In this document: positions 4,156 through 26,442 of the stretch, piece after piece | Layout: each line of letters opens with the position of its first letter | Position numbering within the stretch: position 1 is the first letter of the stretch | NCBI RefSeq assembly: GCF_000709555.1 | Contig: NZ_CP006873.1 | Coordinates: forward strand, 210,001-242,000 | DNA: 32,000 nt | Direction: 5' to 3' | Origin: Candidatus Saccharimonadota bacterium | Lineage (GTDB): Bacteria; Bacteroidota; Bacteroidia; Flavobacteriales; Blattabacteriaceae | Made by a program: the position numbers and the translations under genes | The notes under the pieces: generated by a model | What the model saw: the letters and a program-made list of their open reading frames with translations, nothing else | What the model was told of the DNA's origin: nothing | Databases searched by the model: none

Positions 4156-5340
4156 CTAAATTTCTATGCTGAATTGTTTTATTTTTCTATAGAGTGTTCG
4201 TTCAGATATCCCCAATTCCTTGGCCACCGTTTTTCTTTTACCCCTATTTCTCTTTAAAGCTTTGCGAATCAACTCTATTTCTTTTTCCTGCAAGGATAGA
4301 GATTTAGAAGCAGTCCGCGGTTCTTTGGATTCATCAATTTCTTCATAATTAGTTTCTAATGAATATTTTTTCCCTGCTGCAGATATTATTTCCTCTTGTG
4401 GATGATCCTGTTTAACACGATGAGCATATTCTGTAGGGCTTCGCATAAGTTTCCATGTGAGAGACTTTAAATCGGTTAAATCCTTACGCATATCATAAAG
4501 CACTTTGTAAAGTAAGTCTCTCTCATTACTCATTTGTCCCGACTCCTGAGAAAGCGTATGTTCAGGAAGATATTCTTTTATGCGTTCAATAGAAACCTCT
4601 CTATCAGACTCTAGAATAGATAGTTGTTCTACAACATTACGCAATTGACGAACATTTCCTGGCCACGGATAATTTTTTACATAACCCATAGCATCACTAC
4701 TTAACTTTATGGTAGGCATTCGGTATTTTTCTGCAAAATACTGTGAAAATTTTTTAAATAATAAACTAATATCTCCTCTACGAGCTCGTAAGGAAGGCAC
4801 ATTAATTTGAACAGTATTGAGTCTATAATAGAGATCTTCTCGGAATCTTCCTTTAGATATCGCCTCAGAAATATTAACATTAGTTGCAGCAATGATCCGT
4901 ACATTTGTTCTCTGTATTATAGAAGATCCTACCTTTAAAAATTCTCCGGATTCTAAAACTCGTAATAGCCGGACTTGCGTGGTAAGAGGTAATTCACCTA
5001 CTTCATCGAGAAATATGGTACCCTTATCGACTACTTCAAAATATCCTTTACGTACACAAGTAGCGCCGGTAAATGACCCCTTTTCATGACCGAAAAGTTC
5101 GCTCTCTATAGTTCCTTCAGGAAGAGCCCCACAATTTACAGCTATATAAGAATGATGCTTTCGCAAGGAAAGTTGATGAATGATCTTCGGAAGAAATTCC
5201 TTTCCTACACCACTTTCACCCATTACTAGGACAGAAATATCCGTGGGAGACACCTGAATTGCCTTTGCTAATGAGCGATTTAGCCCTGGGTCATTTCCGA
5301 TTATTTTGAACCGTTGTTTTATGCTCTGTATGTTTTCCAT
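4156..5340 (-). CDS. Sigma-54-dependent transcriptional activator (AAA+ enhancer-binding protein, Fis-type HTH, no receiver domain)
   Basis: Walker A GESGVGKE, ESELFGHEKGSFTGA (a GAFTGA-type sigma-54 contact loop), Walker B FLDEVGEL, the R-finger region and a C-terminal HTH (ELGISERTLYRKIK) are all present. Confidence 0.85.
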   Translation of the reverse strand: MENIQSIKQRFKIIGNDPGLNRSLAKAIQVSPTDISVLVMGESGVGKEFLPKIIHQLSLRKHHSYIAVNCGALPEGTIESELFGHEKGSFTGATCVRKGYFEVVDKGTIFLDEVGELPLTTQVRLLRVLESGEFLKVGSSIIQRTNVRIIAATNVNISEAISKGRFREDLYYRLNTVQINVPSLRARRGDISLLFKKFSQYFAEKYRMPTIKLSSDAMGYVKNYPWPGNVRQLRNVVEQLSILESDREVSIERIKEYLPEHTLSQESGQMSNERDLLYKVLYDMRKDLTDLKSLTWKLMRSPTEYAHRVKQDHPQEEIISAAGKKYSLETNYEEIDESKEPRTASKSLSLQEKEIELIRKALKRNRGKRKTVAKELGISERTLYRKIKQFSIEI

Positions 5341-5348
5341 AGTGTTTT

Positions 5349-6764
5349 TTAGCTATTGAAAGTCGTCTTTCCTATCAGGGTCGAAGAAGTACAATCTACA
5401 ATATTTACAGTCACAAACTCTCCTATTTTATAGTACTCTTTTGGAAAGACTACTACAGCGTTCTGGGAATTTCTACCAGACCAATGCAAAGTACTTTTTT
5501 TTGATTCTCCTTCTATCAATACTTCCTGAATTTTTCCTAAATGCTTTTTTTTACCTTCATAAGAATGTTTCTGTTGCAAATCTATAATCTCTTGTAAACG
5601 TTTTTTCTTTGTAGAGTCAGGAACATCATCAACCAATCTTTTTGAAGCCGGGGTCCCAGGACGTACAGAATAAGCAAACATATATCCGAAATCAAAGTGC
5701 ACGTATTCCATAAGGCTCATAGTTTGATGATGATCACTTTCTGTTTCTCCGCAAAAACCTGCAATAATATCATGAGATATAGCACAATCTGGGATCAGAC
5801 ATCGTATTTTATCAATAAGTTCTATATATTGCTCGCGTGTATATCGACGATTCATGCGTTTTAATACACGTGTACTTCCAGACTGTACAGGGAGGTGAAT
5901 GTGTTTACATATGTTTGAATAACGGACGATAACTTTTAAAACTTTTTCTGACATATCAGAGGGATTAGAAGTAGAAAAACGAATACGCATTTTAGGCAAG
6001 GCACAAGCTACTAACTCAAGCAAATCCGCAAAGTCTAATGAGGTTTTACGTTGAATTTCTGAAGCTTTATAAAAATCCTTTTTCAGACCACCTCCATACC
6101 ACAAATAGGAATCAACGTTCTGTCCAAGAAGAATAACTTCTTTATATCCTTTCTTCCAAAGATTATTACATTCATTCACAATAGTATGCGGATCTCGACT
6201 TCGTTCTCTACCACGAGTGAAAGGAACTACGCAAAACGTACACATATTATCACAACCTCGAGTAATAGTGACAAAGGCTGTTACCCCGTTTCCTATAAAA
6301 CGAACCGGATTTATATCAGCGTAAGTATCAGATTTCGAGAAAGCTACATTAAGAGCCTTTCTTCCATCTTTAACCTGACGAATCAGAGAAGGAATATCAC
6401 GATAGCCATCAGGACCTACCACTAAATCAACTATTTGTTCTTCCTCAAGTAATCGAAACTTTAGTAGTTCTGCCATACACCCTAAAACACCTATCACTAT
6501 ATAAGGTCTGATTTTTTTTATCGATTGAAACTGTGCCAAACGCATCCTAATAGTGTTCTCTGCTTTCTCTCGGATTGAACAAGTATTAATCAATATAACA
6601 TCAGCTTGTCCTGGATCCGAAGTCTTACTGAAACCTTCATCGAATAATATAGAAGTAACTATCTCACTATCATATAAATTCATTTGACAACCATAACTCT
6701 CTAAATAGAATTTCCGATTTTCCTCAATGTGTAGAGGAGAGATCAAACTAGATTCTACCTTCAT
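5349..6764 (-). CDS. miaB: tRNA-2-methylthio-N6-dimethylallyladenosine synthase MiaB (radical SAM methylthiotransferase)
   Basis: 471 aa. It has the N-terminal UPF0004 cysteine motif (YGCQMN...NTCSIR), the radical-SAM CxxxCxxC motif (GCDNMCTFCVVP) and a C-terminal TRAM-like region. Confidence 0.93.
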   Translation of the reverse strand: MKVESSLISPLHIEENRKFYLESYGCQMNLYDSEIVTSILFDEGFSKTSDPGQADVILINTCSIREKAENTIRMRLAQFQSIKKIRPYIVIGVLGCMAELLKFRLLEEEQIVDLVVGPDGYRDIPSLIRQVKDGRKALNVAFSKSDTYADINPVRFIGNGVTAFVTITRGCDNMCTFCVVPFTRGRERSRDPHTIVNECNNLWKKGYKEVILLGQNVDSYLWYGGGLKKDFYKASEIQRKTSLDFADLLELVACALPKMRIRFSTSNPSDMSEKVLKVIVRYSNICKHIHLPVQSGSTRVLKRMNRRYTREQYIELIDKIRCLIPDCAISHDIIAGFCGETESDHHQTMSLMEYVHFDFGYMFAYSVRPGTPASKRLVDDVPDSTKKKRLQEIIDLQQKHSYEGKKKHLGKIQEVLIEGESKKSTLHWSGRNSQNAVVVFPKEYYKIGEFVTVNIVDCTSSTLIGKTTFNS

Positions 6765-6894
6765 ATCTTTCTTGTGTTTGCAGTTTTTTTTTGAGAACTT
6801 TTCGAATACGCAAAGCTCTTACTGCTATTAATGTTATAATACTATCAACGCAGCATTAAACGTTTGTCCTCTTAAGGAAATAACTATATGCTAA

Positions 6895-8052
6895 CTATAA
6901 TTCTAGCGCATTCTCAATTTTACTCTCCATCAAAATTTCTATAGGATTTTCTAAAATTTCTTTAACAGACACTAGAAATCCCACAGATTCTCTTCCGTCT
7001 ATGATTCTATGGTCATATGACAGTGCTACGTACATTATGGGACGAATCTTCACCTCTCCATTTATGGCCACAGGACGCTCAACTATATTATGCATGCCTA
7101 AAATAGCGCTTTGCGGAGGATTAATAATGGGAGTCGAAAGCATCGAACCAAATACTCCTCCATTAGTAATGGTAAAAGTCCCACCACTCATTTCATCTAC
7201 GGAAATTTTTCCGGATCGGACACGTGATGCTAAACGTTTTATCTCTTGTTCTATTCCTCTGAAGGAAAGTATCTCTGCATTTCTTAAAACTGGAACCATT
7301 AAACCTTTAGGTCCAGATATAGCAATACTGATATCACAAAAATCATAATGTATTTTCTCTTCTCCATCAATCATAGTATTTATATCAGGATATAAATTTA
7401 GAGCTTTTACACAAGATTTTACAAAAAAAGACATAAAACCTAATCCGACACCATGTTGTTCTTTAAATTGTTCTTTATATCGATTTCTCAAACTGAATAT
7501 CTCGCTCATGTCTATTTCGTTAAAAGTAGTAAGCATAGCAGTTTCGTTTTTTACGTTGACTAGACGTTCCGAAATTTTCTTTCTAAGTGCAGAAAGACGT
7601 TCTCTTTGAAATGAACGAGGAGCCCCACCCATCGACGGAATAGCTTTAAGAGCATCTTTTTTGGTAATCCGACCTTCTTTACCAGAACCTAAAATTTGGG
7701 AATAAGAAATATTTTTCTCTGCTAAAATCTTCCTTGCTGCTGGAGAAGGTATTTTTTTAAGTTCATCTGTTGTAATAGGTTTTTCTTCTATTTTTTTTAT
7801 CCGTGCAGACGCATTTTTGTTCAGATCTATCAAGCATACTATATGACCAACTTGTAAGGTTTCTCCTTCCTTTGCTTTTAGAGTTATAATGCCACTTTTT
7901 TCAGCTGTAAGTTCTAAGGTAGCTTTATCAGAAGAAATTTCTGCAATAACTTGATCTTTTCTTACATAATCCCCATTTTTTACGAGCCAGGAAGAGATTT
8001 CGACTTCTGTAATCGATTCACCCGGGGAGGGAATTTTCATTTCCAATATCAT
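6895..8052 (-). CDS. sucB: 2-oxoglutarate dehydrogenase E2, dihydrolipoyllysine-residue succinyltransferase
   Basis: [19 protein letters not shown] marks a lipoyl domain with the DKA lipoyl-lysine motif. A PSBD (SPAARK) is present, and the catalytic domain ends in the SYDHRIIDG motif. Confidence 0.93.
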
Positions 8053-8056
8053 AAGT

Positions 8057-10777
8057 TCATGATCTAAAAACTTTTTCTATAATTTCCTTCTGTGTTTTTA
8101 TAAAATTACTATAAGAACCACTGGCTGGAGAAGCACTTTCATCACGAGATATAATCTCAAAAGGGATGCTTTTTAGTGTATAAGATATGTAAGGCCAAGG
8201 TCCCATGTTTTTAGGTTCTTCTTGAACCCACATCCATCGTTTACATTTTGGGTATTTTTCCAAAATTCTTTTTAATAATTCTTTTTGGATAGGATATAAC
8301 TGCTCTAACCGTATTAGTGCAATATGCATAGATCTAGTGATTTCTTTTTCCTTAAGGATTTCATAATATATTTTTCCTGAACAAATAACTATTTGTGTTA
8401 TTCGTTTAGGATCATCAGTGTCGTCGTCTATGATTGGATAGAATCTATCTGTAGCCAGATTTGCTAATGTAGCAACACATTTAGGATGTCTTAAGAGACT
8501 TTTAGGGGTGAAAATAACTAAGGGTTTTCTAAAAGGAAATTTCATATGTCTTCGTAAAGCGTGATAAAAATTGGCCGGATTAGTACAGTTTAGTATAAAC
8601 ATATTATATCGGCCGCACAATTGAAGATATCGTTCAATACGTGCAGAAGAGTGCTCTGATCCTTGTCCCTCATAGCCATGAGGTAATAACAGTACTAATC
8701 CGTTTTGTATTTTCCATTTATCTTCTGCAGCAGATAAATACTGATCTATAATAATTTGAGCTCCATTGCTAAAATCTCCAAATTGTGCTTCCCAAAGAGT
8801 TAGGGTATTAGGAGAAGCCATAGCATAACCATAATCAAATCCCATTACTCCGTATTCAGAAAGTGGGGAGTTATATATTTGTATAAGACCTTGTCCTACT
8901 CTAAGATGGTTTAGTGTAATATACTTATTTTCAAAATTTTCGGATTTAATTACTGCATGACGATGGGAAAAAGTCCCCCTCTCAACGTCTTCTCCAGAAA
9001 GACGGATATCGAAATTTTCATATAATAAAGTCCCATAAGCTAAAAGTTCTGCCATACCCCAATCAATGATATTACCATTTTTTATCATTTCTTTTCTTTG
9101 GGCTAAAATTTTTTCTATTTTTTTATAGAAATGATAAGTTTTTGGTAAACTGCTTATTATTAAGCCTATTTCTGTTAGTAGTTCTATAGGAAAACTTGTA
9201 TCCATCTCTTTGAATACCTGAGAAGATTGGTCTGGTGAAAAAATATTCCATTCTGAAGGCAAAAAATAATTTAATTGATTTCGCTTCCTATTTTTAGCTC
9301 TTTCATAGCTATTTTCTAGCTTTTTACTCAAATCTTGTTCAATAACTTGAATGTATGCATTATCTATGATGTTTTCTTTTTGTAATTTTTTTTTGTAAAT
9401 ATCTCTAGCGTTAATCTGATTCGCAATAGCCTTATAAAGTGAAGGTTGTGTAAACCTGGGGTCATCTCCTTCATGGTGTCCATATTTCCTATATCCCAAA
9501 ATATCAATAAAAACATCTCTTTGATAATGCATTCTAAAATCGACAGCAAAATGTATAGCGTGAATAACGGATTCTACATCATCAGCATTGACGTGTAATA
9601 CTGGGGAAAGGGTAACTTTTCCTATATCAGTACAATAGATACTAGAACGACCATCTATATAATCAGTGGTAAATCCCATTTGATTATTGACTACTATATG
9701 TATCGTTCCTCCTGTTTTATAACCTTCTAGTTGAGACATTTGCACAATTTCATAAATAAGACCTTGTCCAGAAATAGCAGCATCGCCATGTATAAGAATG
9801 GGTAACAGATGGTTATAATTTTTCTTATAGTAATGATCTATCTTCGCTCTTGCGAGACCTTCTACCACAGTATCTACAGTTTCAAGATGCGAAGGATTCG
9901 GTGCTAGACTTATTTTTATAGATTTCCCATGACGGTTATTTCGTTTTATCGTAGCTCCTAAATGATATTTGACGTCTCCAGAAAAAACTTTTTCATCATA
10001 TTCTTTTCCATCGAATTCGCTAAATATTTCTTCTAAGCTTTTTTTTAAAATATTAGCTAATACATTTAATCTACCTCTATGAGCCATCCCTATAACAAAT
10101 TCCTCGGCTTCATAACAAATCGAGGCATATTCTATAAGCTCATCAACAGCAGGTAACAAAGATTCATTCCCTTCAATAGAAAATCTTTTCTGACCTACAA
10201 ATTTAGTGTGTAAAAAGTTTTCAAATACTACTGCTTCAGTGAGTTTATTCAGTAAGTTTTTTTTTTCTTCAACCGAAAGAGACGGTTTATTCTCATTTTT
10301 ATTAAGCCATTGCTGAATCCAGTAAATATTTTCTGGATTTCGCAAATGTATATATTCTATTCCTATAGATTCGCAATATACAGTCTTCAGATGAGTCAAT
10401 ATATTAGCCAGCGTACAAGGTTCCTTTCCGACAAGTTTTCCAGCTTCAAAAACCGTTTCAAGATCTTCTATCCCAAGTCCAAATTGTTCAATATCTAAAT
10501 TCGGAGAATATTCACGCCTACTCCTAATTGGATTAGTTTTCGTAAAAAGATGCCCACGACTCCGATAGGCTTGGATCAAATTTAAGACCTGGAATTCCTT
10601 CAGAATTTTTTGAGAATCCTTGTTATCATTTCTATTGTAGGTTGCCAAGGCAAAATCAAAACCTTGAAAAAAAGCTCGCCAACTTGGCTCAATCTGGTCT
10701 GGAGTATGAAGATATCTATGATAGAGCTCTTCAATGAGTTTTGGATGAACGGTATTCAGAAAAGAATAACGATCCAT
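8057..10777 (-). CDS. sucA: 2-oxoglutarate dehydrogenase E1 component
   Basis: Length and sequence are typical of SucA ([30 protein letters not shown]). The start was moved to the internal Met (MDRYSFLN...) because the first 18 ORF codons look like read-through. Confidence 0.92.
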
Positions 10778-10833
10778 GAGAAATAAGTATAACTCTTCTG
10801 AGAAGAGAGAATGATTATTAAAATGTAACATTT

Positions 10834-13461
10834 TTAGTTAAAAATAAAACTCTCCACTAACTTTATCGCTTCATTTAACCCAGTAGAATTGTTACCCTTT
10901 GCCATAGCAAAAAACTTCTTACCTCCCCCTTTCCCTTTGATATATGGGGATAATTTTTGAAGAATTTTACAAGCATTTACCCCATGTTCTACAAGATCAT
11001 CAGAGACAGCTATGCAAAGCAGCACGTTATTTTTTTCAGAACGACCAACAACTGTTATTAGTTCTCTATGTTCCCTACGTAATTCTAATGCTATGGTTTT
11101 CATAGCAGTAGGTTCTAGATTTGTTTTTTCATAGATCAACATAAATCTATCATGTTTTTTAGCTTTTGTTAACCATTCTTTTTTTAATCTCTGTATTTCT
11201 CGTGACGTTACAATATTTATTTTTGTTCGTAACTTTTTTATTTCCTGTTGCAATTGTTGTATCGTTTTAATCGGATCGGAGGGATTATGTATTTGATAAA
11301 TAATTTTATTATAATCATCATATATCTTGTTTTGATATCCAATGGCAGTTTTTTCGGTAATTGCTTCTATACGTCGAATACCTGATCCTACAGAAGATTC
11401 TGATACAATTTTGAATAATCCTATTTCTCCAGTTTTCTTTACATGTGTTCCAAAACACAATTCTAACGAGGGGCCAAAACCAATACTTCGCACTTTATTT
11501 CCGTATTTTTCCCCAAATATTGCTACAGATCCTTCTGAAATTGCTGTTTCAAATGGAATGTTTCTACGTTCTCGTAAAGGATAATCTTTAAATATTATAT
11601 CCTGTACCAACATCTCAATCGACTGCAATTGTTCAATACGTATTTTTTTAGTATGAGAAAAGTCAAAACGCAATCTATCAGGCCCTACATACGATCCTTT
11701 CTGAGAAACATGATACCCTAGGACTTTTTTTAGAGCATAATGTAATAAATGAGTAGCACTATGGTTTTTTTCAATTTTCTTTCTACGATTTTTATCTACT
11801 GAAGCTTTGAAAGGTTTTTGGATATTATCAGGAAGTTTTTCTATCGTATGAAGAAAAAGACCATTCTCTTTATAAGTATTTATGATTCGTATTGTATCAA
11901 ATTCATTTTCCAAATAACCACTGTCTCCTACCTGGCCACCTTCTTCCGGTAAAAAAGGTGTTTTATTTAAAACAATTTGATAATAGGGACCTTTAATCGT
12001 TTGCACACGACGATATTGTTGTATATAAACATGAGCATATAAAATTTCATGACCGATAAATTTGTTTTCTTCTTCTACGAAAGAACTATTGAGAATAGTC
12101 CAATCATCATGCTGAATATTCCCATATTTCCGAGCACGTTCTTTTTGAAGAGACATTTCTTTTTTAAAGCCTATTTCATCTATTTTTAACAAATTGTCTG
12201 CAGCAAATAAACGTGAAATATATATAGGTAAACCGTAAGTATCATATAACTCAAATATTTTATCTCCACTAATCTGGTTTTGTCTTTTTTGTTTAGTTTC
12301 TTCAATAAGATTTCCCATTCTGTTTATGCCATGAGTTATGGTATTAAAAAAAGTGCTTTCTTCTGCTTGGACTTGTTCCTCTATCCACTTTTGTTGACGA
12401 ACAAGTTCAGGAAATATATCTCCCATTTCTTGTACAAGAACTTTCACAAGTTTATACAAAAAAGCTTGATTCTGATGTAAAAATTGATATCCATAACTTA
12501 TGGATCTTCTCAAAAGACGACGAATTACATATCCTGGACCAATATTAGAGGGATTTTGTCCGTCAGCAATAGCAAAAGAAATAGCTCTTATGTGATCTAC
12601 TATCACACGAATAGCTATATCTATTTGAGAATTTTTCCCATAATTAACATTGCTAACCGATTCTATTTTTTTAATTAGAGATCGAAAAAGATCAGTGTCA
12701 AAATTTGAAGATTTGTTTTGCAATACTCTGCAGAGTCTCTCAATACCTAGACCAGTATCTATATGACGATTCTCTAATTTTTCAAGACTTCCATCCGATT
12801 TCCTAAGAAATTCTATAAATACAAGATTCCATAGTTCTATGACATCCGGATGATTTTTATTAACAAGATCCTTACCGGAAACAGACTTTTTTTCTTTTGA
12901 ACTACGTAAATCTATATGAATTTCTGAACAAGGTCCACAAGGACCGATAGATCCCATTTCCCAGAAATTTTCTATTTTACCAAAAGAGATAATGCGATTT
13001 TTGTCAATAAATCTTGACCAAAGAAATCTAGACTCCTCATCAGGAGAAATATCATTTTTATCATCACCAGAAAATATTGTAACATATAAATTTTCACTAG
13101 GGATTTTGTAGACCTCAGTAAGAAGTTCCCAAGACCATTCTATAGTCTCTTTTTTATAATAATCTCCAAAAGACCAATTTCCAAGCATTTCGAACATAGT
13201 ATGATGATGAGTATCATGACCGACATCTTCTAAGTCATTATGTTTTCCTACTACTCGTAAGCATTTTTGCGTATTAGCTATTCTAGAATAATGAGGGATT
13301 CTTTGCGAGAGAAAATAATCTTTGAAAGGATTCATTCCCGCGTTTGTGAACATAAGGCTGGGATCATTTTTTATAACAATGGGAGATGAAGGAAAGATTT
13401 TATGATTTTTTTTTTGGAAAAAATTTAAAAAACTCTGTCGGATTTTACGAGAGGTAAACAT
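10834..13461 (-). CDS. alaS: Alanine--tRNA ligase
   Basis: Class II AlaRS motifs are present (FTNAGMNPFKDYF, HHTMFEMLGNWSFGDY, editing-domain HSATHLL). The start was set at the Met of MFTSRKIRQSFLNFF, because the upstream 23 ORF codons run through the tRNA-Ser gene. Confidence 0.95.
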   Translation of the reverse strand: MFTSRKIRQSFLNFFQKKNHKIFPSSPIVIKNDPSLMFTNAGMNPFKDYFLSQRIPHYSRIANTQKCLRVVGKHNDLEDVGHDTHHHTMFEMLGNWSFGDYYKKETIEWSWELLTEVYKIPSENLYVTIFSGDDKNDISPDEESRFLWSRFIDKNRIISFGKIENFWEMGSIGPCGPCSEIHIDLRSSKEKKSVSGKDLVNKNHPDVIELWNLVFIEFLRKSDGSLEKLENRHIDTGLGIERLCRVLQNKSSNFDTDLFRSLIKKIESVSNVNYGKNSQIDIAIRVIVDHIRAISFAIADGQNPSNIGPGYVIRRLLRRSISYGYQFLHQNQAFLYKLVKVLVQEMGDIFPELVRQQKWIEEQVQAEESTFFNTITHGINRMGNLIEETKQKRQNQISGDKIFELYDTYGLPIYISRLFAADNLLKIDEIGFKKEMSLQKERARKYGNIQHDDWTILNSSFVEEENKFIGHEILYAHVYIQQYRRVQTIKGPYYQIVLNKTPFLPEEGGQVGDSGYLENEFDTIRIINTYKENGLFLHTIEKLPDNIQKPFKASVDKNRRKKIEKNHSATHLLHYALKKVLGYHVSQKGSYVGPDRLRFDFSHTKKIRIEQLQSIEMLVQDIIFKDYPLRERRNIPFETAISEGSVAIFGEKYGNKVRSIGFGPSLELCFGTHVKKTGEIGLFKIVSESSVGSGIRRIEAITEKTAIGYQNKIYDDYNKIIYQIHNPSDPIKTIQQLQQEIKKLRTKINIVTSREIQRLKKEWLTKAKKHDRFMLIYEKTNLEPTAMKTIALELRREHRELITVVGRSEKNNVLLCIAVSDDLVEHGVNACKILQKLSPYIKGKGGGKKFFAMAKGNNSTGLNEAIKLVESFIFN

Positions 13462-13484
13462 CACATAAGTTTTATATAGGATTG

Positions 13485-13571
13485 CGGAGAGAAAGGGATT
13501 CGAACCCTTGACACTGTATTCAGTGAACATACTTTCCAGGAATGTGCCTTAGACCACTCGGCCATCTCTCC
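13485..13571 (-). tRNA. tRNA-Ser (anticodon GGA), type II with long variable arm
   Basis: The reverse complement folds as follows. Acceptor is GGAGAGA/TCTCTCC. Anticodon stem is CATTC/GTATG (one U-U mismatch) with loop CTGGAAA. Variable arm is CACTG-AATA-CAGTG. T arm is AAGGG-TTCGAAT-CCCTT. Discriminator is G. Confidence 0.9.
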
Positions 13572-14556
13572 AAGAATTTTCCAATATGCTGATCCCTAAG
13601 GCTTTTCTAACACGTTGTAATGTGATCGTAGCTATTTGTGAAGCACGTTCAGCTCCCAGAGAAAGAATTTTATTTAAAAGTACTTTTTTTTGTATAAATT
13701 CATTGAATTTTTCTCGTTCGTGTTTAAACCTATGTAATAAAAGTTCATAAAGAGCTTGTTTAGCATTCCTATAACCATAACCTCCTGATAGATAATTTTT
13801 TTCCATTTCAATAATTTGGTATTCAGAAGCAAAAAATTTGTAAAAAGTATAAATTAAATCTGTTTCTGGATTTTTAGACTCCTCTAAGGAAAGATTATTG
13901 GTTCGAATATTCATGATTTGCTGGTATAGTTCTTTTTCTTTAGCAAAAAGATTTATAATATTTCCTTTAGATTTGCTCATTTTGTTTCCGTCAATACCTG
14001 GTATATACATCATATTTTTATTAATCATAGGTTCTGGGACAACAAAGACTTCTCCTATTTTACTATTAAAACGCTTGGCTATATCACGCGTAATCTCCAT
14101 ATGTTGGAGTTGATCTTTCCCCACTAGTATTTTTTCAGCATCGTAGAGCAATATGTCCGCTGCCATAAGCATAGGATAGGTAAATAAGCCAGTGTTAATC
14201 TCTTTAATATAATTTTTTTTTTCCTTAAATGAATGTGCTAATTTAAGTCTATGATAAGGGTAAAAACAACTTAAATACCAAGATAATTCAGTTGTCTGAG
14301 GTACATCGGATTGACGATAAAAAATCGCTCTATCAGCATCAAGCCCGCAAGCAAGCCAAGTAGCCAAAACTTGATAGGTATATTCTTTTAATAACTCAGC
14401 ATTTTTAACAACAGTTAACGAATGTAAATCTGCAATAAATAAAAAGGAAGTATAATCAGAGCTATTTGCCAATTGAATAGCTGGAAAAATAACACTCAAT
14501 AGATTGCCTAAATGAGGAATACCAGTGCTTTGGATCCCCGTTAATATTCTGGACAT
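13549..14556 (-). CDS. trpS: Tryptophan--tRNA ligase
   Basis: This is a class I enzyme, with a HIGH-like PHLGN motif and KMSKS. It is 335 aa. The last 23 nt, including the stop, lie inside the tRNA-Ser gene. Confidence 0.93.
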   Translation of the reverse strand: MSRILTGIQSTGIPHLGNLLSVIFPAIQLANSSDYTSFLFIADLHSLTVVKNAELLKEYTYQVLATWLACGLDADRAIFYRQSDVPQTTELSWYLSCFYPYHRLKLAHSFKEKKNYIKEINTGLFTYPMLMAADILLYDAEKILVGKDQLQHMEITRDIAKRFNSKIGEVFVVPEPMINKNMMYIPGIDGNKMSKSKGNIINLFAKEKELYQQIMNIRTNNLSLEESKNPETDLIYTFYKFFASEYQIIEMEKNYLSGGYGYRNAKQALYELLLHRFKHEREKFNEFIQKKVLLNKILSLGAERASQIATITLQRVRKALGISILENSWRDGRVV

Positions 14557-14559
14557 TTT

Positions 14560-15329
14560 TAATATTTTAACGCTTCTTCCCAGAATTTCTTTAGGAATTC
14601 TGACGTTCTTTATTAGAGTGAAGTATTAACTCACTTTTAATTTTAGAAGCATTTTCTGTGGCTTTATGCATAGCCATCATCCGTGATCAAGCATTGCTTT
14701 AAAAATAGCTATTTTTAGGAATTAAATAGTCTAAAAGAGCTTCTTTTGAAGGCTCCATAAAGTAATTAACCTTTTCATCATTACTAGACTTTATAGAGAT
14801 AGGTAATAGTTTTCGGTTTTAAAACCGACTCCAGAATTTTTATATTCACAATATATACTATATGAATAGAACCTTTAAGAAATTCTTCTATTAAAGAATC
14901 ACAGAATATTTCTACCTGATGGTCATAAATCGTATAAAATAGATTAAAATTATGTTATAGTAATTTTTTTTCCTCTGAAAAGGAATAGAGATTTTATGAG
15001 TAATATCTTTAACGATTGCATCATTGAAACTTCCACAAAGTCCCCTATTAGAACTGATAACAATGATTAATTTTGTATTTACAAAAACCTCTTCTAAATA
15101 AATAGAATTAAAATCTGTATTTGAAAAAGTAGACGTCTTCTATTCCTTAAGAATAAGGATAGAATTGTAATATGGCATCTTTAGCATCTTTAGCATCTTT
15201 AGCATCTTTAGCATCTTTAGCATCTTTAGCATCTTTAGCATCTTTAGTTTTTTTAAGTTTAGCTGCAGTAATCTTCATCATAGAAGAAACTGATTGAATC
15301 CGAAAAAGGATTTATTTTAAACTAGGCAC
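14560..15329 (-). pseudogene. atpG: ATP synthase F1 gamma subunit (atpG) pseudogene
   Basis: Hand translation gives an N-terminal VPSLK*ILFRIQSVSSMMKITAAKLKK (compare LKEIRNRI.SV..T.QIT.AMKMVSAAKLKKAQ) with an in-frame TAA and an internal deletion. The C-terminal MMAMHKATENASKIKSELILHSNKERQNS* is followed by a frame change to IPKEIL. There are many stops in between and no long ORF. Confidence 0.75.
15175..15247. repeat. Perfect tandem repeat, 9-bp unit GCATCTTTA x 8 (minus strand AAAGATGCT = Lys-Asp-Ala)
   Basis: The eight identical units were counted directly, at 15175-15246. The repeat lies inside the atpG pseudogene at the position of the ancestral KLKKAQDA segment. Confidence 0.95.
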
Positions 15330-16298
15330 GTCCTTTAATATATTTCTCTTCATGAGAGACTCTTTCAAGCACTTTAGTAAATTTTGTTACATTATTTGAG
15401 GATATTTGTTATTTAAATAAATATTCTTCCTCAAATTCGTGAACCTTATTAAGAGAGTCAACAGATTTCTGGGACCGAGATATAGTATAGCTATTTTATA
15501 AGGATTATTTATCCGTTGTTTTAGAATTTCCACGTTATGTTTACCTTTATTTCTAATATCCATAGTAACAGGATCAAGATTAGAAACAAACTTTTAAAAG
15601 GCTTCCTTCCTTCCTTCCTTCCAGATCACGGAATTGAGCCTGATCAATTTTAAGAGTTCCAGCTTGCTACTACACGGGATCCAGAAATCCCTTCATTAAT
15701 TGCTGCCCCCAGAATTAAACAAATCAATTTATAAAAATATTTGGCCTAATAGAGATAATATTAGTTGGAATATAAGCGTCTACCTCTTGGGTATCGCTGT
15801 CCCCCCTTGAGACATCGTTAAGATTACGGGCTACTTCATCATGCAGAACGTTACAATAAGCGTAGACAGGATTAGCTTCTCGTCCTGGAGTCTTAAAAGC
15901 AAAGAAATTTCACGGTAAGATCATCGGCCTCACGAAAATATTCTACTACGACCGTCTACATTTTTAATGTGTTGCCACTGGCAACATAAAGACAAAAAAC
16001 TGGTGATCATAACATTCCTTCTGATTAAGAATCGTGGTTTGACCTGTCTGTCGTTGGCCCACGTCTAATAGGAATCATAGCATCAATAGCTATAAGACCT
16101 GTTTGTAGAGAGGCTTACGATAGATTAGGAGGTAAGCTAGGTAAGCTATATGTACGCTACGTTGTATCCTTCTAGGATAACCAGGGTGAGTACAATACCT
16201 TTAAGACCAGTATGAAATTCTACTAATTGTCTACTCCATCACCTATTTTAAGTCCCACACCAAATTCTTTTTTCAAGATGGCTAAGATTTTAGATCTA
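15330..16298 (-). pseudogene. atpA: ATP synthase F1 alpha subunit (atpA) pseudogene, heavily deleted
   Basis: Fragments lie in several frames: ILAILKKEF..GVGLKIGDGV, QLVEFHTGLKGIVLTL, LQTGLIAIDAMIPIRRG, a collapsed Walker A QRQTGQTT (16033-16056; GKT changed to GQT with flanking codons missing), AGTLKIDQAQFRDLE, and FVSNLDPVT...VEILKQ. There are multiple stops. The span is about 0.97 kb, against roughly 1.5 kb expected for an intact atpA. Confidence 0.8.
15602..15622. repeat. Tetranucleotide microsatellite (TTCC)5 (minus strand GGAA)
   Basis: Read directly from the sequence. It sits exactly at the ancestral ...RDLE|AF... junction of atpA and shifts the frame. Confidence 0.9.
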
Positions 16299-16475
16299 TC
16301 ATCTAATTGTAAGAGATTCTAGTAGCTTATAAGCTCTTTACTAAGACTCATATCCGCTCAGAGCACCAATAATAGTAGGATCTACTTTCTTCAAGAGAAA
16401 GTCTTTTGTATTTCCATAACTTCATCCAATATTTAAAGGTATAGCCGTGATGATAGTGGCTTCTCCCCTAAAAAA
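16299..16475 (-). pseudogene. atpH: ATP synthase F1 delta subunit (atpH) remnant, C-terminal third only
   Basis: Translation gives ATIITAIPLNIG*SYGNTKDFLLKKVDPTIIGALSGYES**, which resembles the delta C-terminus (..VDPSIIGG..). The N-terminal two thirds are missing. Confidence 0.5.
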
Positions 16476-16492
16476 TTCATGAGTAATAGATT

Positions 16493-16888
16493 TTAATAAA
16501 GAAATTGTCGTCTTGTTTTTGAAGAATCAAGAATATTTCTCTTTTTTTGTTTTGTTTTGTTTTTTTTTTTTAAACGGTAAAGAAGGCATTTTAAGAAAGG
16601 AATAAAAATACCGATTTTTTTTTTTGCTTCTTCACGGATTTTATCACTCATTATCCGAGCTTCTTTTAATAAAAGATCTCGTTCAATACGACTTTCTTTA
16701 ATCCAATTATCTTTTTCAAGATGAAAAAGACGAATTTCTGAACGTACTTTTTGAGCAGCTTCTAGAGAATTATGCAAATGAGTATCACGTTGTTTAATCA
16801 GATTTAATATGGGTTTCCACGCAAATTTTGTAAGAATGAAAAAGAGATGCCAAAAAATAAAACCTATGGAAGGCGTTACTAAATCCAC
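16493..16888 (-). pseudogene. atpF: ATP synthase Fo subunit b (atpF) pseudogene
   Basis: The first ~90 aa are b-like (TPSIGFIFW...KFAWKPILNLIKQRD...LLKEARIMSDKIREEAKK) but the TM helix is shortened. After a 13-nt homopolymer (about 16612-16624) the reading frame encodes low-complexity K/N-rich junk. No frame continues the b coiled coil. Confidence 0.7.
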
Positions 16889-16930
16889 GATATAATTAAA
16901 TAAATTCTCGGTAACCCTATTTTAATATAC

Positions 16931-17005
16931 CTAAAAGGGCAGTACGAAAAGTGATGCAGGAGCACTTTGGTGTCTGCGACCTGTCTGTCTAAGATTAGCG
17001 TCCAT
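16931..17005 (-). pseudogene. atpE: ATP synthase Fo subunit c (atpE) remnant
   Basis: Only MDANLRQTGRRHQSAPASLFVLPF* remains (compare SAMEAIARQPE...ALFAL). The first TM helix and the loop context are deleted. Confidence 0.55.
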
Positions 17006-17010
17006 AGAAA

Positions 17011-17642
17011 TTAAGATGTTTCATTATCTTTTATACCAATAAGGCAACGAAGTCTTATAAAGATTCCTACAAGTTCTATTGGGATTCGGAAAAAACGAAC
17101 GGAGGCATATGGAAAATATGTTTCCAATAAGATCTTTTGGAGGTTATAATTAGAAAGGTAATCAACGATAAAACTAAGGTGGTATTCCCAGTTACTTTCG
17201 TAGCATCCCAATCAGATTGTAGGAGATAAAAAAATACTGTAGGAAAATACAACTTATACATAGGGTTCCCTATGTTTTGAATAGCTAATTCATCTCTGAG
17301 GAACAAAATTAGTGGTTCTCCTGTAAAGAAATAGGACAAAGAATAAAAACAGAACATAAAGTAGCCACAACATTTTTCGTAATGGAGAGATTCAACGGTT
17401 GCTCATTTAGGTGGACCCATCAGCGTCTTGCACAAGACGATAATATTTTCCATCAGACAACCTTTCTTCCATATTTAAACCGAAAGAAAGACACAAAATT
17501 ATAGGTAAAGGAATACTTAGACTTTTCTCTACCCCAAAAGTGCCATTCAGATGAATCTCGGTTCAAGAATTCTTTCTGGATAAGAAACTACAAAACTATG
17601 AAGCACAAAAAAGAGAGAAAAAATAAAAATACTACTTTTCAC
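17011..17642 (-). pseudogene. atpB: ATP synthase Fo subunit a (atpB) pseudogene
   Basis: From the GTG at 17642 the N-terminus reads VKSSIFIFSLFFVLHSF..., a signal-like sequence, then hits a stop. IHLNGTFGVEKSLSIPLPIIL, VTGNTTLVLSLITFLII and PIELVGIFIRLR lie in different frames. The C-terminal helices are missing. Confidence 0.75.
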
Positions 17643-17663
17643 TAATTTGAATCGATCTAAATT

Positions 17664-19118
17664 CTAGAAATTTGGGTTTAAACAAGTAGAACCATCCTCA
17701 TTATCAATCAATGAATATCCAAGATGAAAGAGCTCATTCCGTATCCTATCTGATATATCCCATTTTTTTTCTTTTCGGACTAATTTTCGTATCTCCAATA
17801 GGAGATCTATCAACTTGTGATTAACGGTTAAGTCTGAAGGAATATTAACTCCTAAGACCTCTGTAAGAAAATTTCTCATATTTCTATGTAATAATTGGAT
17901 ATCATAAATATCTAAGAATTCTTTTCCTTTGACAAAAGATTCAATTAAATTACCTGCTTCAAAGAGATGGGAAATTAATTTTGGACTATTAAAATCATCA
18001 TTCATAGCATCATAACACCTCTGGATCCAATCCTTCACATCAAAAGTAGAAAGACCCCGATTTTTTTCTGCTATTAACCTTTTTAAGGTGGTAAAATATT
18101 TCATCAGACGATGAAATCCCTTCTCCGCAGAGAGAAGAGACTGGATTGAAAAATCAAATACACTACGATAATGAGATTGAAGCATAAAAAATCGAATAAG
18201 ATTCGCAGAGAAAGATTTTTCTCCTGTGAAAAGTTCTGAAGGAAGAATTAGATGTCCGCTTGACTTACTCATTTTTTTATCTTTTATAGTCAGGAGATTA
18301 ACATGAATCCAGTATCGAACTGGATTTTTCTCGGAAATGCCCAGAGCTTGGGCTAATTCACATTCATGATGTGGAAACTTTAAATCTATTCCACCACCAT
18401 GTATATCAAAAACATTCCCTAAATATTTTGTGCTCATAGCGGTACATTCTAAGTGCCATCCCGGGAAACCTTTACCCCAAGGAGAATTCCAACTCATAAG
18501 ATGCTTAGGCGATGCTTTTTTCCATAGGGCGAAATCTAGAGTATATCGTTTTTCATTTTGCGCTTTTAAATTACGTGTATTGGCTATGAGATCTTCTATA
18601 TTTCTATGGCTCAAAATCCCGTAATCATAACGTTGGATATAGGATTTTAAATCAAAATAAACAGATCCATTTACTTCATAAGCTAGTCCTTTGTCAATAA
18701 GTTTGACAATCAGTTCTATTTGTTCAAGAATATGACCTGTAGCAATAGGCTCTATATTAGGAGGTAATGTATTTAATACAGAAAGAATATGATGAAAATC
18801 AAGGGTATATTTTTGCGTAATTTCCATAGGTTCTAGACGTTCTAAACGAGCTCTTTTAGAAATTTTATCTTCACCTTCATCTTCAAGATGTCCCACATCA
18901 GTGATATTACGCACGTAACGTACTTTATACCCCAGATATTTAAAATAACGAACTATCAAGTCAAAAAAAATAAATGTACGACAATTTCCTAAATGGATTT
19001 CTCTATAAACAGTGGGGCCGCAAGTATATATTCCAACATGTCCTTGAATAATAGGGACAAAAGTTTCTTTTTTTCCACTAAGAGTGTTGTATATTTTTAT
19101 TTTTTGCTTCATTTTCAT
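17664..19118 (-). CDS. cysS: Cysteine--tRNA ligase
   Basis: 484 aa. Motifs are [15 protein letters not shown] (HIGH-type), GWHLEC and KMSKS. Confidence 0.95.
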
Positions 19119-24327: not shown

Positions 24328-26442
24328 TTACTTCTTCGGCAGAGATTTATCCTCGTATACTTCAATATAGTCTCCTATTTTGAGAGCATTATAGTTCTTT
24401 ATTTGCAATCCGCATTCATAACCTTTAGAGACTTCTTTTACATCTTCTTTAAATCGTTTAAGAGAAGCTAATTCGCCATGAAATATGACAATACCGTCTC
24501 GGATTAATTTGATTTTAGCAGGACGAAATATTTTCCCGTTAATAACCATACATCCAGCAACGGTTCCTACTATTTTAGGAATATTAAAGATATTACGAAT
24601 CTCAGCAGTACCACATATTTGTTCTTGAAGTTTAGGAGAATACATTCCTTCTATAACGTTAGAAATTTCCCTAATTACATCATAAATAATTGAATATGTA
24701 CGTATTTCAATCTGTTCTCTTTCTGCAATTTTTCTGGCATTAGGAGTTGTTCTAACATTGAATCCTATAATGATAGAATGAGAGGCACTGGCTAGTAAAA
24801 CATCTGATTCAGTAATTTGTCCTACACCTTTGTGAATAATATTTACCAATACTTCCTTTTTAGACAGATTTTTTAGTGCATTCATAATAGCTTCTACGGA
24901 ACCGTCTACATCTCCCTTAAGAATAATTTTTATTTCCTTCCCTGCTACGTTAACGTTAGTTAACGTAACATGCTTATGTATGCGAAGATTGTGCTCTCTT
25001 TGTAATTGTTGTTTTTTTAAAGCCAGTTGTTTAGCTTCCTTATCATTACTGAACACTTTAAATTTATCACCAGCTGTAGGACCACCGTTAAGTCCCAATA
25101 TAGATACAGGTTTTGAAGGACCGGCATTTTTAATGGAATTACCTCTTTCATCGAAAAGGGCCTTAACTTTTCCGTGGAAGATCCCTGCTAATATGTAGTC
25201 TCCAAGTTTGATAGTCCCAGATTGAACAAGGATAGTAGTCATATATCCACGACCTTTATCGAGAGTAGATTCAATGATTGTCCCAGAAGCCATTTTATTT
25301 GGATTAGCTTTCAATCCTAAAAGTTCAGCTTCTAGCCAAACCTTATCGAGTAATTGTTCAATACCTTCCCCTGTTTTTGCAGAAATTTCCTGAGACTGAT
25401 ATTGACCTCCCCATTCTTCTACCAAGATATTTATGTTAGCTAGCTGTTCACGTATTTTATCAGGATTTGCCGTAGGTTTATCTATTTTATTTAAAGCAAA
25501 TATTAGAGGAACTCCAGCTACTTTTGCGTGATTTATTGCTTCTTTGGTTTGCGGCATAACTTCCTCATCCGATGCTATAACAATAATAACAATATCAGTT
25601 ATCTTAGTGCCTCGGGCGCGCATTGACGTAAATGCCTCATGACCAGGAGTATCAAGAAAAGTAAGACATCGGCCGTTTTTTAATTCTACACTATAAGCAC
25701 CTATATGCTGTGTAATTCCTCCAGATTCACAAGATTTAGTATTTCTAACATAATCTAAAAATGACGTTTTTCCGTGGTCTACGTGACCCATAACTGTGAT
25801 AATGGGTGCACGACTATGCAGACTTTCTTTTGGATCTTCCTCTTCCTTCATAACTTTATCTATATCTTCTCCGACAAAATCTATACTGTATCCGAATTCA
25901 TCAGCTACTAGGGGAAGTATTTCTGCGTCTAAACGTTGATTCATTGTTACCATAACACCTAAAGACATACAAGTAGTAATTAATTGTGTGCTAGAAACAT
26001 TCATCAGAGAAGCTAATTCATTTACAGTAATAAACTCAACTATTTGAAGTACTTTTTTAGGTTTTGAATCAAGCGTTTTATTATCTTCTTTTGGTGGTTG
26101 TTTTTTTTTCCTATACTTTAAAAGTGTTGATTTCTTATTTTTTACAGGGACTTTTGAAAAAGTTTCCTTAATTTTTTCTACACGTTGTCTCACATTTTCT
26201 ATTCCACTACGCAAAGTACGTTGCTTTTTTTTATCGGATTTATTTTTTTCAAATTGAGACAGATCTATTTGATCTCCTGTAAATACAGGACCTGGAAGTT
26301 TTTTATATTGTGTTTTTATAGAAATGTCTGTTTTTGATTTTGAACCGTCTGTTTTTGATTTTGATTTTGAACCGTCTGTTTTTGATTTTGAACCGTCTGT
26401 TTTTGAAACTGGTATCAGAGAATCACTCTTTATGTGAACCAT
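24328..26442 (-). CDS. infB: Translation initiation factor IF-2, main ORF lacking the N-terminal IF2_N domain
   Basis: G-domain motifs GHVDHGKT, DTPGH and NKID are present, as are the C-terminal domains. The repetitive Lys/Ser-rich N-terminal linker contains TDGSKSK repeats. Confidence 0.93.
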   Translation of the reverse strand: MVHIKSDSLIPVSKTDGSKSKTDGSKSKSKTDGSKSKTDISIKTQYKKLPGPVFTGDQIDLSQFEKNKSDKKKQRTLRSGIENVRQRVEKIKETFSKVPVKNKKSTLLKYRKKKQPPKEDNKTLDSKPKKVLQIVEFITVNELASLMNVSSTQLITTCMSLGVMVTMNQRLDAEILPLVADEFGYSIDFVGEDIDKVMKEEEDPKESLHSRAPIITVMGHVDHGKTSFLDYVRNTKSCESGGITQHIGAYSVELKNGRCLTFLDTPGHEAFTSMRARGTKITDIVIIVIASDEEVMPQTKEAINHAKVAGVPLIFALNKIDKPTANPDKIREQLANINILVEEWGGQYQSQEISAKTGEGIEQLLDKVWLEAELLGLKANPNKMASGTIIESTLDKGRGYMTTILVQSGTIKLGDYILAGIFHGKVKALFDERGNSIKNAGPSKPVSILGLNGGPTAGDKFKVFSNDKEAKQLALKKQQLQREHNLRIHKHVTLTNVNVAGKEIKIILKGDVDGSVEAIMNALKNLSKKEVLVNIIHKGVGQITESDVLLASASHSIIIGFNVRTTPNARKIAEREQIEIRTYSIIYDVIREISNVIEGMYSPKLQEQICGTAEIRNIFNIPKIVGTVAGCMVINGKIFRPAKIKLIRDGIVIFHGELASLKRFKEDVKEVSKGYECGLQIKNYNALKIGDYIEVYEDKSLPKK
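26326..26406. repeat. Tandem 21-nt repeat (GTCTGTTTTTGATTTTGAACC) x about 3.5, one unit carrying an extra GATTTT
   Basis: Read directly. Units lie at 26326-26346, 26347-26373 (27 nt) and 26374-26394, with a partial unit at 26395-26406. The repeat is in frame and encodes (TDGSKSK)n in IF-2. Confidence 0.9.

Follow-up and report, generated by a model that had tools for sequence, protein, structure and literature searches.

The window, a 32,000-nucleotide stretch of contig NZ_CP006873.1 (positions 210,001 to 242,000), comes from Ca. Walczuchella monophlebidarum, a symbiont of the scale insect Llaveia axin (genome label LLAX); its AtpF open reading frame has 100% identity to a W. monophlebidarum protein. 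Within it, two minus-strand genes that are intact and full-length by Pfam, trpS on the downstream side (13549-14556) and cysS on the upstream side (17664-19118), enclose a minus-strand interval of about 3.1 kb (14557-17663). This interval is the eroded wreck of a real F-type ATP synthase operon. The longest open reading frame between trpS and cysS has 131 residues, and neither Rfam nor tRNA scans detect an RNA gene within the interval.

In the frameshift-aware alignment, the atp homology runs B-(E)-F-(H)-A-G along the minus strand, with descending coordinates. Both the order B-E-F-H-A-G and the restriction to a single strand agree with the 26 intact Flavobacteriia operons that underlie our profiles; these were fetched through AtpB from metagenomes, and each carries six open genes in about 4.9-5.2 kb. 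Free-living Flavobacteriia, Sulcia, and Blattabacterium have an intact atpBEFHAG operon with the same gene order and orientation. Other candidate references were set aside: the trpS neighborhoods of free-living Flavobacteriaceae (L002-L080) hold only an atpG tail at their edge and are unusable, and L081, in which the atp operon is split into many open reading frames and which is probably a noisy long-read contig, was used in one tblastx search and excluded from the profiles. Two independent assemblies of symbionts from Icerya scale insects, L001 (NZ_OZ034981, Icerya purchasi) and L163 (CP170563), were also compared.

The remnant of about 3.0 kb contains no complete gene and lacks about 2 kb of an original length of about 5 kb. 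In all, its lesions amount to about 22 frameshifts, located mostly away from homopolymers, 4 stop codons, and the deletion of about 40% of the operon length. The original prediction of a canonical gene order with no intact gene between trpS and cysS is thus borne out, as is its span of about 3.1 kb, while its figure for an intact operon (4.5-4.8 kb) was slightly low. The colinear atpB, atpF, atpA, and atpG remnants match Flavobacteriia profiles with E values of 1e-13 to 1e-25 (with our own profiles, AtpB 1.2e-16, AtpF 3.6e-25, AtpA 6.2e-15, and AtpG 1.4e-15) and share 43-63% of their aligned codons with the Flavobacteriia consensus. Pfam searches of the raw frames likewise find the significant atp similarity that had been proposed: the gamma family ATP-synt at 3.7e-17, ATP-synt_B at 6.8e-8, and ATP-synt_ab_C at 4.9e-5. 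ATP-synt_A, OSCP, and ATP-synt_C give zero matches, both in the raw frames and with the stitched AtpB, AtpH, and AtpE pieces. A functional F1Fo ATP synthase needs every subunit gene open and full-length; here, the sole open reading frame is that of atpF, at 131 residues. These observations support the view that the interval is a nonfunctional, eroded atpBEFHAG array in which no subunit gene is intact.

The atpB (subunit a) pseudogene (17053-17559, minus strand) spans columns 57-283 of the 361 in the profile; it contains 5 frameshifts, and deletions remove 63 columns. Half of its aligned codons (82 of 164) are identical to the Flavobacteriia consensus, and a tblastn match reaches 1e-16. The last 78 or so columns, which correspond to the C-terminal helices, are missing, and it is because this conserved part is deleted that Pfam ATP-synt_A does not match. 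A hydrophobic N-terminal open reading frame at 17547-17642 may be the original atpB start. The earlier observation that two AtpB motifs lie in different frames is confirmed.

The gap in which atpE (subunit c) is expected (16892-17052, minus strand) is 161 nt long. The best match within it is 8 codons, 'SMDANLRQ' (16985-17008), which would lie in the c-subunit loop. This match is not significant, since its score of 18.3, compared with a null of 15.4 +/- 2.7, is equaled by 46 of 300 and 79 of 500 shuffles (p ~0.16). The DNA of the gap is homologous to a stretch of L001 that reads 'LGLSVL*AIYRQP' where the consensus has IGGSAMEAIARQP, a similarity that is itself marginal (5 of 500 shuffles reach its score). 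The idea that about 24 codons of AtpE survive is not confirmed in this window, and Pfam ATP-synt_C gives no match either.

The atpA (alpha) pseudogene (15418-16294, minus strand) aligns to columns 7-486 of 525, interrupted by 12 frameshifts and 2 stops and lacking 200 columns, and 177 of its 280 aligned codons are identical to the consensus. Its stitched translation matches ATP-synt_ab_C at 4.8e-11 and ATP-synt_ab at 4.5e-4. The Walker A motif (GxxxxGKT) is not intact; GQRELIIGDRQTGKT has become 'GQRQTGQT', with the loss of 7 codons and the replacement of the lysine by glutamine, so that the collapse of this motif and the presence of stops were correctly foreseen. The atpG (gamma) pseudogene (14600-15329, minus strand) aligns to columns 1-268 of 287 over 218 codons, with 5 frameshifts and 50 columns deleted, and its stitched translation matches Pfam ATP-synt at 6.2e-23. 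As predicted, it has a stop at codon 6 together with internal deletions; there is also one further stop. In addition, atpG contains a perfect 9-nt tandem repeat of 8.1 copies (15175-15247, minus strand), a 21-codon insert that reads (AKD)n.

Between atpF and atpA lies a vestige of atpH (delta/OSCP; 16365-16460, minus strand), which spans columns 109-149 of the 182-column profile ('ATIITAIPLN...VDPTIIG'). It stands in the right place and order, 14 of its 27 aligned codons match the consensus, and the same 9 codons are retained in L001; the N-terminal 108 or so columns are gone. For the earlier statement that AtpH keeps only its C-terminal third, the match is marginal: its score is reached in 4 of 300 shuffles and in 2 of 200 (p ~0.01), hmmsearch with the fragment alone gives an E value of about 0.03, and Pfam OSCP does not match. 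Thus, of the six remnants first proposed, atpB, atpF, atpA, and atpG stand, atpH is marginal, and atpE is not recovered at a significant level.

In L001 and L163, the same operon is found at the same place and is also eroded, but the erosion differs from that in the window. Relative to the window, atpB is more complete in the Icerya symbionts (L001 retains columns ~50-350), whereas atpA and atpG are far less complete. The flanking cysS differs as well, being intact in the Llaveia symbiont but decayed in the Icerya ones. When the window and L001 were aligned globally with MAFFT, atpB and atpF aligned well but atpA and atpG were misaligned, and for this reason, mismatches were counted in local HSPs. 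In the alignable atp DNA, 6.4% of sites differ, and the mismatches fall 18:16:23 on the three codon positions. These counts do not depart significantly from a uniform spread (p=0.50) but do depart from the pattern of intact genes (p=1.6e-6). In the intact neighbors, the share of differing sites is 2.5% at first, 1.0% at second, and 7.0% at third positions. The atp p-distance is therefore close to the third-position value of the neighbors and exceeds their all-site mean of 3.5% by a factor of about 1.8. Because the substitutions are even over codon positions and proceed at the third-position rate of the neighbors, the operon was already dead around or before the split between the Llaveia and Icerya symbionts.

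The alternative that survives best is that each lineage inactivated the operon recently and independently, so that the loss would be in progress rather than ancestral. No unambiguous inactivating lesion common to the window and L001 was found. A frameshift in atpB before 'NEQPLNLS' was considered as a shared lesion, but independent events explain it equally well. Several lesions are clearly lineage-specific, for example in L001, a GAA to TAA stop in atpB and a 2-nt insertion plus a 13-nt duplication in atpF; in the window, an 18-nt deletion in atpF. Furthermore, atpB alone shows mismatches of 4:3:10 by codon position, small numbers that leave room for some constraint on this gene after the split. 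Nevertheless, recent independent loss is unlikely given the uniform codon-position spread over the operon, a divergence that matches the third positions of intact neighbors, and the retention by both lineages of just the same tiny piece of atpH. The original description of a loss "in progress" is misleading: only physical, deletional erosion is ongoing, while function itself, judged from the codon-position spread, was lost around or before this old split.

A second alternative concerns atpF (subunit b), whose 131-residue open reading frame (16493-16888, minus strand; intact length ~165) is annotated by RefSeq as a CDS, "F0F1 ATP synthase subunit B family protein," and could be read as a gene that is still conserved. 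Homology extends from 16616 to 16870 (profile columns 9-99 of 166), and its 85 aligned codons contain neither a stop nor a frameshift. Both deletions in the gene keep the frame, and the Pfam ATP-synt_B score is 33.1 bits (cut-off 28). Since all 131 codons are open and the deletions are net in-frame, residual expression is possible. However, the full-length family cut-offs are failed: the NCBIfam equivalog scores are 76 versus 200 bits and 43 versus 65.5, with only positions 1-97 of 164 matched. Six codons of the membrane helix have been removed, the entire delta-binding end is gone, and so are the partner subunits. The homology ends at a run of 11 A residues (A11; 16615-16625, minus strand), downstream of which lies a run of 12 (A12; 16560-16571, minus strand). 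This is where AtpF had been said to derail after about 90 residues, although at a 13-nt homopolymer rather than at runs of 11 and 12. Past A11, the lysine-rich tail, which may be frameshifted or reflect an in-frame deletion, has no significant similarity to the family, and the C-terminal third is not recognizable. One candidate for an in-frame C-terminus, 'LKKKNKTKQKK' aligned in the same frame with LKEELSNKDKQTK, is weak and lacks significance (57 of 500 shuffles). In both Icerya symbionts, the orthologous stretch has suffered frameshifts, duplication, and stops, and only a 61-residue fragment is left, and the mismatches between the window and L001 show no codon-position bias (5:3:3). A conserved atpF is consequently very improbable; the open reading frame is a truncated remnant, a fragment that has not yet been interrupted.

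The chance that the operon is really intact and that its apparent lesions reflect artefacts of sequencing or assembly, such as homopolymer errors, is close to nil: the atpF homology does stop at A11 with A12 just downstream, and the 2014 genome paper warns that homopolymer frameshifts may not abolish function (PMC3971599), but about 2 kb is missing, the damage includes deletions of tens of codons, stops, and an altered Walker A motif, two independent sister-symbiont assemblies are decayed alike, and the separate MBE 2025 study that produced one of these, aimed at the worry over assembly quality, found all of its genomes degraded (PMC12188211). Assembly error is also very unlikely because the Icerya-symbiont copies are differently eroded. 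Rescue by transcriptional slippage or programmed frameshifting, through which some ATP synthase would still be made, is just as hard to credit: slippage at poly(A) tracts is known to rescue genes in other insect endosymbionts (work cited in PMC3971599) and poly(A) runs are present in the interval, yet most of the frameshifts are not at homopolymers, the interval has physically lost 200 of the 525 AtpA columns, the C-terminal stretch of AtpB, almost the whole of atpE, and two thirds of atpH, the genome reportedly lacks atpD and atpC (PMC3971599), and the substitutions show no codon-position bias.

The best explanation, to which we assign a probability of about 0.93, is that the interval is dead atpBEFHAG DNA that has decayed neutrally since about the time when the Llaveia-type and Icerya-type symbionts diverged, or earlier, in an organism that would make no F1Fo ATP synthase of its own. 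The operon lost its function around or before that split and then evolved neutrally, accumulating substitutions at the third-position rate, small and large deletions, frameshifts, stops, and slippage-type tandem repeats, with separate lineages losing separate pieces. Lacking an F1Fo ATP synthase, the symbiont would draw on host (mitochondrial) ATP, as the literature suggests, and its own substrate-level steps, for example the retained branch from 2-oxoglutarate to succinate, could add to this supply. The dependence on host ATP that had been predicted is also the conclusion of the MBE 2025 study of seven Walczuchella genomes, in all of which most COG category C genes have been lost or turned into pseudogenes, and in which ATP is inferred to come from host mitochondria (PMC12188211).

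The loss of the ATP synthase is already known. The genome paper for W. monophlebidarum (Rosas-Perez et al. 2014) lists atpA, atpB, and atpG as pseudogenes, gives atpC, atpD, atpE, and atpH as absent (Table 2), and describes atpF as "seemingly conserved" (PMC3971599). The sequence analyzed here comprised the 32-kb window and 10-kb flanks, and the absence of atpC and atpD from the genome is taken from that paper. Since the loss was reported in 2014 and placed in context in 2025 (PMC12188211), no new question is opened here. For the same genome and locus, the present analysis adds a marginal atpH vestige and a nonsignificant, position-consistent atpE trace among genes listed as absent, shows atpF to be a stub, truncated and without codon-position bias, where the 2014 paper saw an apparently conserved gene, and places inactivation at about the Llaveia/Icerya symbiont split. 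The comparison with L001 and L163 shows, for the atp locus, the energy-gene decay described in MBE 2025, whose main text gives no lesion-by-lesion account of atp and no timing of its inactivation (PMC12188211). As the lineages keep complementary fragments, reconstruction of the ancestral operon and measurement of deletion rates would be feasible. The locus is a textbook case of an obligate insect endosymbiont that drops its own ATP production for host-dependent energetics, a step toward organelle-like status, and it illustrates that dead DNA vanishes slowly even from a tiny genome.

Elsewhere in the window, sucA and sucB are intact, and the open reading frame at 46-1152, homologous to "quinol:cytochrome c oxidoreductase," is compatible with ActF, a subunit of alternative complex III (ACIII); both had been noted previously. 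W. monophlebidarum also keeps a cbb3 oxidase, NADH dehydrogenase, cytochromes c, and the 2-oxoglutarate to succinate branch, and its ATP synthase is listed as "few subunits" (PMC3971599). A proton-pumping chain is represented by ActF here and by the cbb3 oxidase and NADH dehydrogenase in that report. One rather unlikely suggestion is that in the Llaveia lineage, the respiratory chain and sucAB stayed under selection long after the ATP synthase died, with respiration serving to recycle NAD+ and quinone and to drive Tat/Sec export instead of making ATP; the 131-residue AtpF stub might persist within such membrane biology. The Icerya symbionts also lack sucAB and apparently ActF, and the LLAX copies may therefore simply not have been hit yet. 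Ca. Uzinura diaspidicola, a flavobacterial symbiont of armored scales, is likewise without an ATP synthase (PMC3971599, Table 3). Uzinura, however, possesses neither an ATP synthase nor any part of the respiratory chain, whereas Walczuchella LLAX combines the wreck of the operon with apparently intact respiratory genes.

The 3.1 kb between trpS (13549-14556) and cysS (17664-19118), both on the minus strand and full-length by Pfam, contain no ORF longer than 131 aa. A Pfam search of the three raw minus-strand frames recovers ATP-synt gamma (3.7e-17), ATP-synt_B (6.8e-8), and ATP-synt_ab_C (4.9e-5). Per-subunit profiles were then made from 26 intact Flavobacteriia atpBEFHAG operons taken from metagenomes, which span 4.9-5.2 kb and encode subunits B, E, F, H, A, and G of ~340-400, 63-76, 165, 180, 525, and 287 aa, respectively. 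With these, hmmsearch detects AtpB (1.2e-16), AtpF (3.6e-25), AtpA (6.2e-15), and AtpG (1.4e-15 and 4.7e-13); all significant profile matches lie on the minus strand in operon order, and in this interval AtpE and AtpH give none. [quoted passage not shown] G+C is ~0.30-0.38 across the whole window. The decay of atp in this genome has already been published, and the present result is a correct rediscovery; its refinements are incremental: recognition of atpF as a stub, traces of atpH and atpE, erosion that is complementary between genomes, and an approximate timing.

Lesions were mapped by a frameshift-aware profile-to-DNA alignment, with identity counted against the consensus. The atpB remnant (17559-17053, minus) covers columns 57-283 of 361, with 82 of 164 aligned codons identical, 5 frameshifts, and no stops; 63 columns are deleted and the C-terminal ~78 are absent. 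In atpA (16294-15418, minus; columns 7-486 of 525), 177 of 280 aligned codons are identical, 200 columns are deleted, and there are 12 frameshifts and 2 stops; the Walker A segment GQRELIIGDRQTGKT has shrunk to GQRQTGQT. The atpG remnant (15329-14600, minus; columns 1-268 of 287) retains 93 identities in 218 aligned codons, with 5 frameshifts, 2 stops (the first at codon 6), 50 deleted columns, and a 21-codon insert that is a perfect 9-nt tandem repeat. Pfam recognizes the stitched translations of AtpA (4.8e-11) and AtpG (6.2e-23). These alignments bear out the original prediction that the AtpB motifs it quoted are out of frame with each other (they lie in two different frames), that the AtpA Walker A is collapsed amid several stops, and that AtpG has a stop at about codon 6 and internal deletions.

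The longest ORF (16493-16888) corresponds to atpF, and several results argue against the apparent conservation of this gene given in PMC3971599. Its alignment (16870-16616, minus) has no frameshifts or stops, spanning columns 9-99 of 166 with 39 of 85 codons identical. The ORF reaches 76 bits where the NCBIfam equivalog cut-off is 200, and 43 where TIGR01144 requires 65.5; in the NCBIfam comparison it matches only positions 1-97 of 164. Six codons of the membrane helix, whose residues are still present in the Icerya purchasi symbiont (L001, NZ_OZ034981), are deleted, and the last 40 codons are Lys-rich and without significant similarity. Similarity does end at a homopolymer, as had been noted, but the run is A11 (16625-16615) followed by A12 (16571-16560) rather than 13 nt. 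In both Icerya symbionts, L001 and a second Icerya-host Walczuchella (L163, CP170563), the orthologous stretch is frameshifted, with a 13-nt duplication and stops, and the called product is only a 61-aa fragment. Mismatches with L001 by codon position are 5:3:3.

For atpH and atpE, only the gap expected for each was searched, with shuffles of that gap DNA as the null. The atpH match (16460-16365, minus; columns 109-149 of 182) has 14 of 27 aligned codons identical, no frameshifts, and no stops in aligned codons; one stop lies in a 5-codon insert, and the N-terminal ~108 columns are absent. Its score is reached by 4/300 and 2/200 shuffles, marginally supporting an atpH vestige, helped by the right position and order. 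The best atpE match is 8 codons long (SMDANLRQ vs AMEAIARQ) and not significant, being equaled by 46/300 and 79/500 shuffles; thus, the window does not establish the AtpE remnant of ~24 codons previously claimed. Two different frames of this gap yield equally tempting motif matches. In the homologous L001 DNA, LGLSVL*AIYRQP, compared with the consensus IGGSAMEAIARQP, is reached by 5/500 shuffles, and our reading of the alignments places a deletion in the window where that 21-nt piece would sit. An atpE trace is probably present at this spot.

L001 and L163 carry the atp locus at the same place, differently eroded, which argues that the lesions are not an artefact. In these symbionts atpB is nearly full-length but with stops (141 bits in L001), and a C-terminal piece of atpF is retained; only central scraps survive of atpA, and only the last ~40 codons of atpG. 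As a separate observation, the atpBEFHAG operon of a metagenome contig (L081, ENA ERZ25073217 ctg12820l, 5100-10300) is broken into about ten short ORFs; the contig is either a long-read assembly with many errors or a further case of bacterial ATP synthase decay.

Where alignable, window and L001 atp DNA are 93-96% identical in substitutions, with abundant indels; the p-distance is 6.4% over 1,121 alignable sites. Intact neighbours (trpS, alaS, proS, aroA, groEL) differ by 2.5%, 1.0%, and 7.0% at first, second, and third codon positions. In profile-aligned atp codons, mismatches are 18:16:23, which by this comparison fits a uniform spread (p=0.50) and rejects the intact-gene pattern (p=1.6e-6). 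This even spread and the p-distance indicate that the operon has been in neutral drift for essentially all the time since the Llaveia and Icerya lineages split, a divergence that PMC12188211 places at the base of Walczuchella (Drosicha+Llaveia vs Crypticerya+Icerya). A loss at or before the split is what we infer rather than observe, since no unambiguous lesion common to window and L001 was found and atpB alone (4:3:10) allows a somewhat later loss of constraint. The locus is non-coding wreckage whose neutral evolution is marked by a strong bias towards deletions and by repeat expansions of the slippage type.

Selection on ATP synthesis would have relaxed after the host began supplying ATP. 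PMC12188211 concludes that every Walczuchella is undergoing decay of its energy genes and obtains ATP from host mitochondria; cbb3 oxidase, NADH dehydrogenase, and cytochromes c are present in this genome, and atpC, atpD, atpE, and atpH absent (PMC3971599). Intact sucA (8057-10831) and sucB (6895-8052) agree with the original prediction. The ORF at 46-1152 (+) holds 368 aa, the C-terminal portion of a protein of 423 aa, and some of its flavobacterial homologs are named quinol:cytochrome c oxidoreductase, compatible with the ActF of the original prediction. Alternative complex III has probably already been lost in the Icerya lineage, since no homolog exceeds 72% identity in the protein database even though this includes Icerya-Walczuchella (strain ICSE) proteins. 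Respiration and the 2-oxoglutarate branch may be heading the same way as ATP synthase, because the Icerya symbionts appear to have lost them already. In L001 13741-15772, which corresponds to window 6895-10831, no long ORF covers sucA or most of sucB (~70-73% alignment, many gaps); in the I. purchasi symbiont, decay has also reached what is left of the TCA cycle.

Loss of mismatch repair, recorded in both PMC3971599 and PMC12188211, would promote indels and repeat expansion. The dead atpG, atpA, atpF, and cysS remnants of both Walczuchella genomes contain tandem repeats of 4-15 nt that match perfectly (100%) and reach up to 8 copies (window 15175-15247, the 9-nt atpG insert, and 15602-15622; L001 7157-7272, 8626-8651, 9202-9297, and 9351-9391). 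These repeats resemble products of recent slippage in the unconstrained DNA of a repair-poor genome.

Flanking genes differ as well. The cysS gene, intact in the window, is down to scattered 30-140-nt matches in the Icerya symbionts (L001 6863-7520; L163 2233-2900), whose lineage has lost an aminoacyl-tRNA synthetase. TrpS shares 96% identity with its L001 counterpart and exceeds it by 10 aa, which may reflect loss of the original stop; tRNA-Ser(GGA) (13484-13571, minus) overlaps the last ~7 trpS codons and stop (13549-13551), and also covers the first ATG of the alaS ORF (13530). This ORF (10834-13530, minus) encodes a full-length alanyl-tRNA synthetase of 898 aa, with Pfam matches to tRNA-synt_2c (4e-179), tRNA_SAD, and DHHA1; the 2014 description of the genome (PMC3971599) gives the enzyme as missing. 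In free-living Eudoraea and other Flavobacteriaceae (L005, L009, L012, L013, L019, L020, L022, L065), atpG and trpS are ~10 kb apart and on opposite strands; the Walczuchella linkage is a compacted, rearranged version of this older neighbourhood. Elsewhere in the window, RNase E/G occupies two overlapping ORFs (28387-28893 and 28854-29744, +; Pfam RNase_E_G positions 2-77 and 78-270), a frameshifted gene representing a further pseudogene or else a site of slippage, and a 21/27-nt tandem repeat (26326-26406) lies in the N-terminal region of an otherwise intact infB (IF-2).
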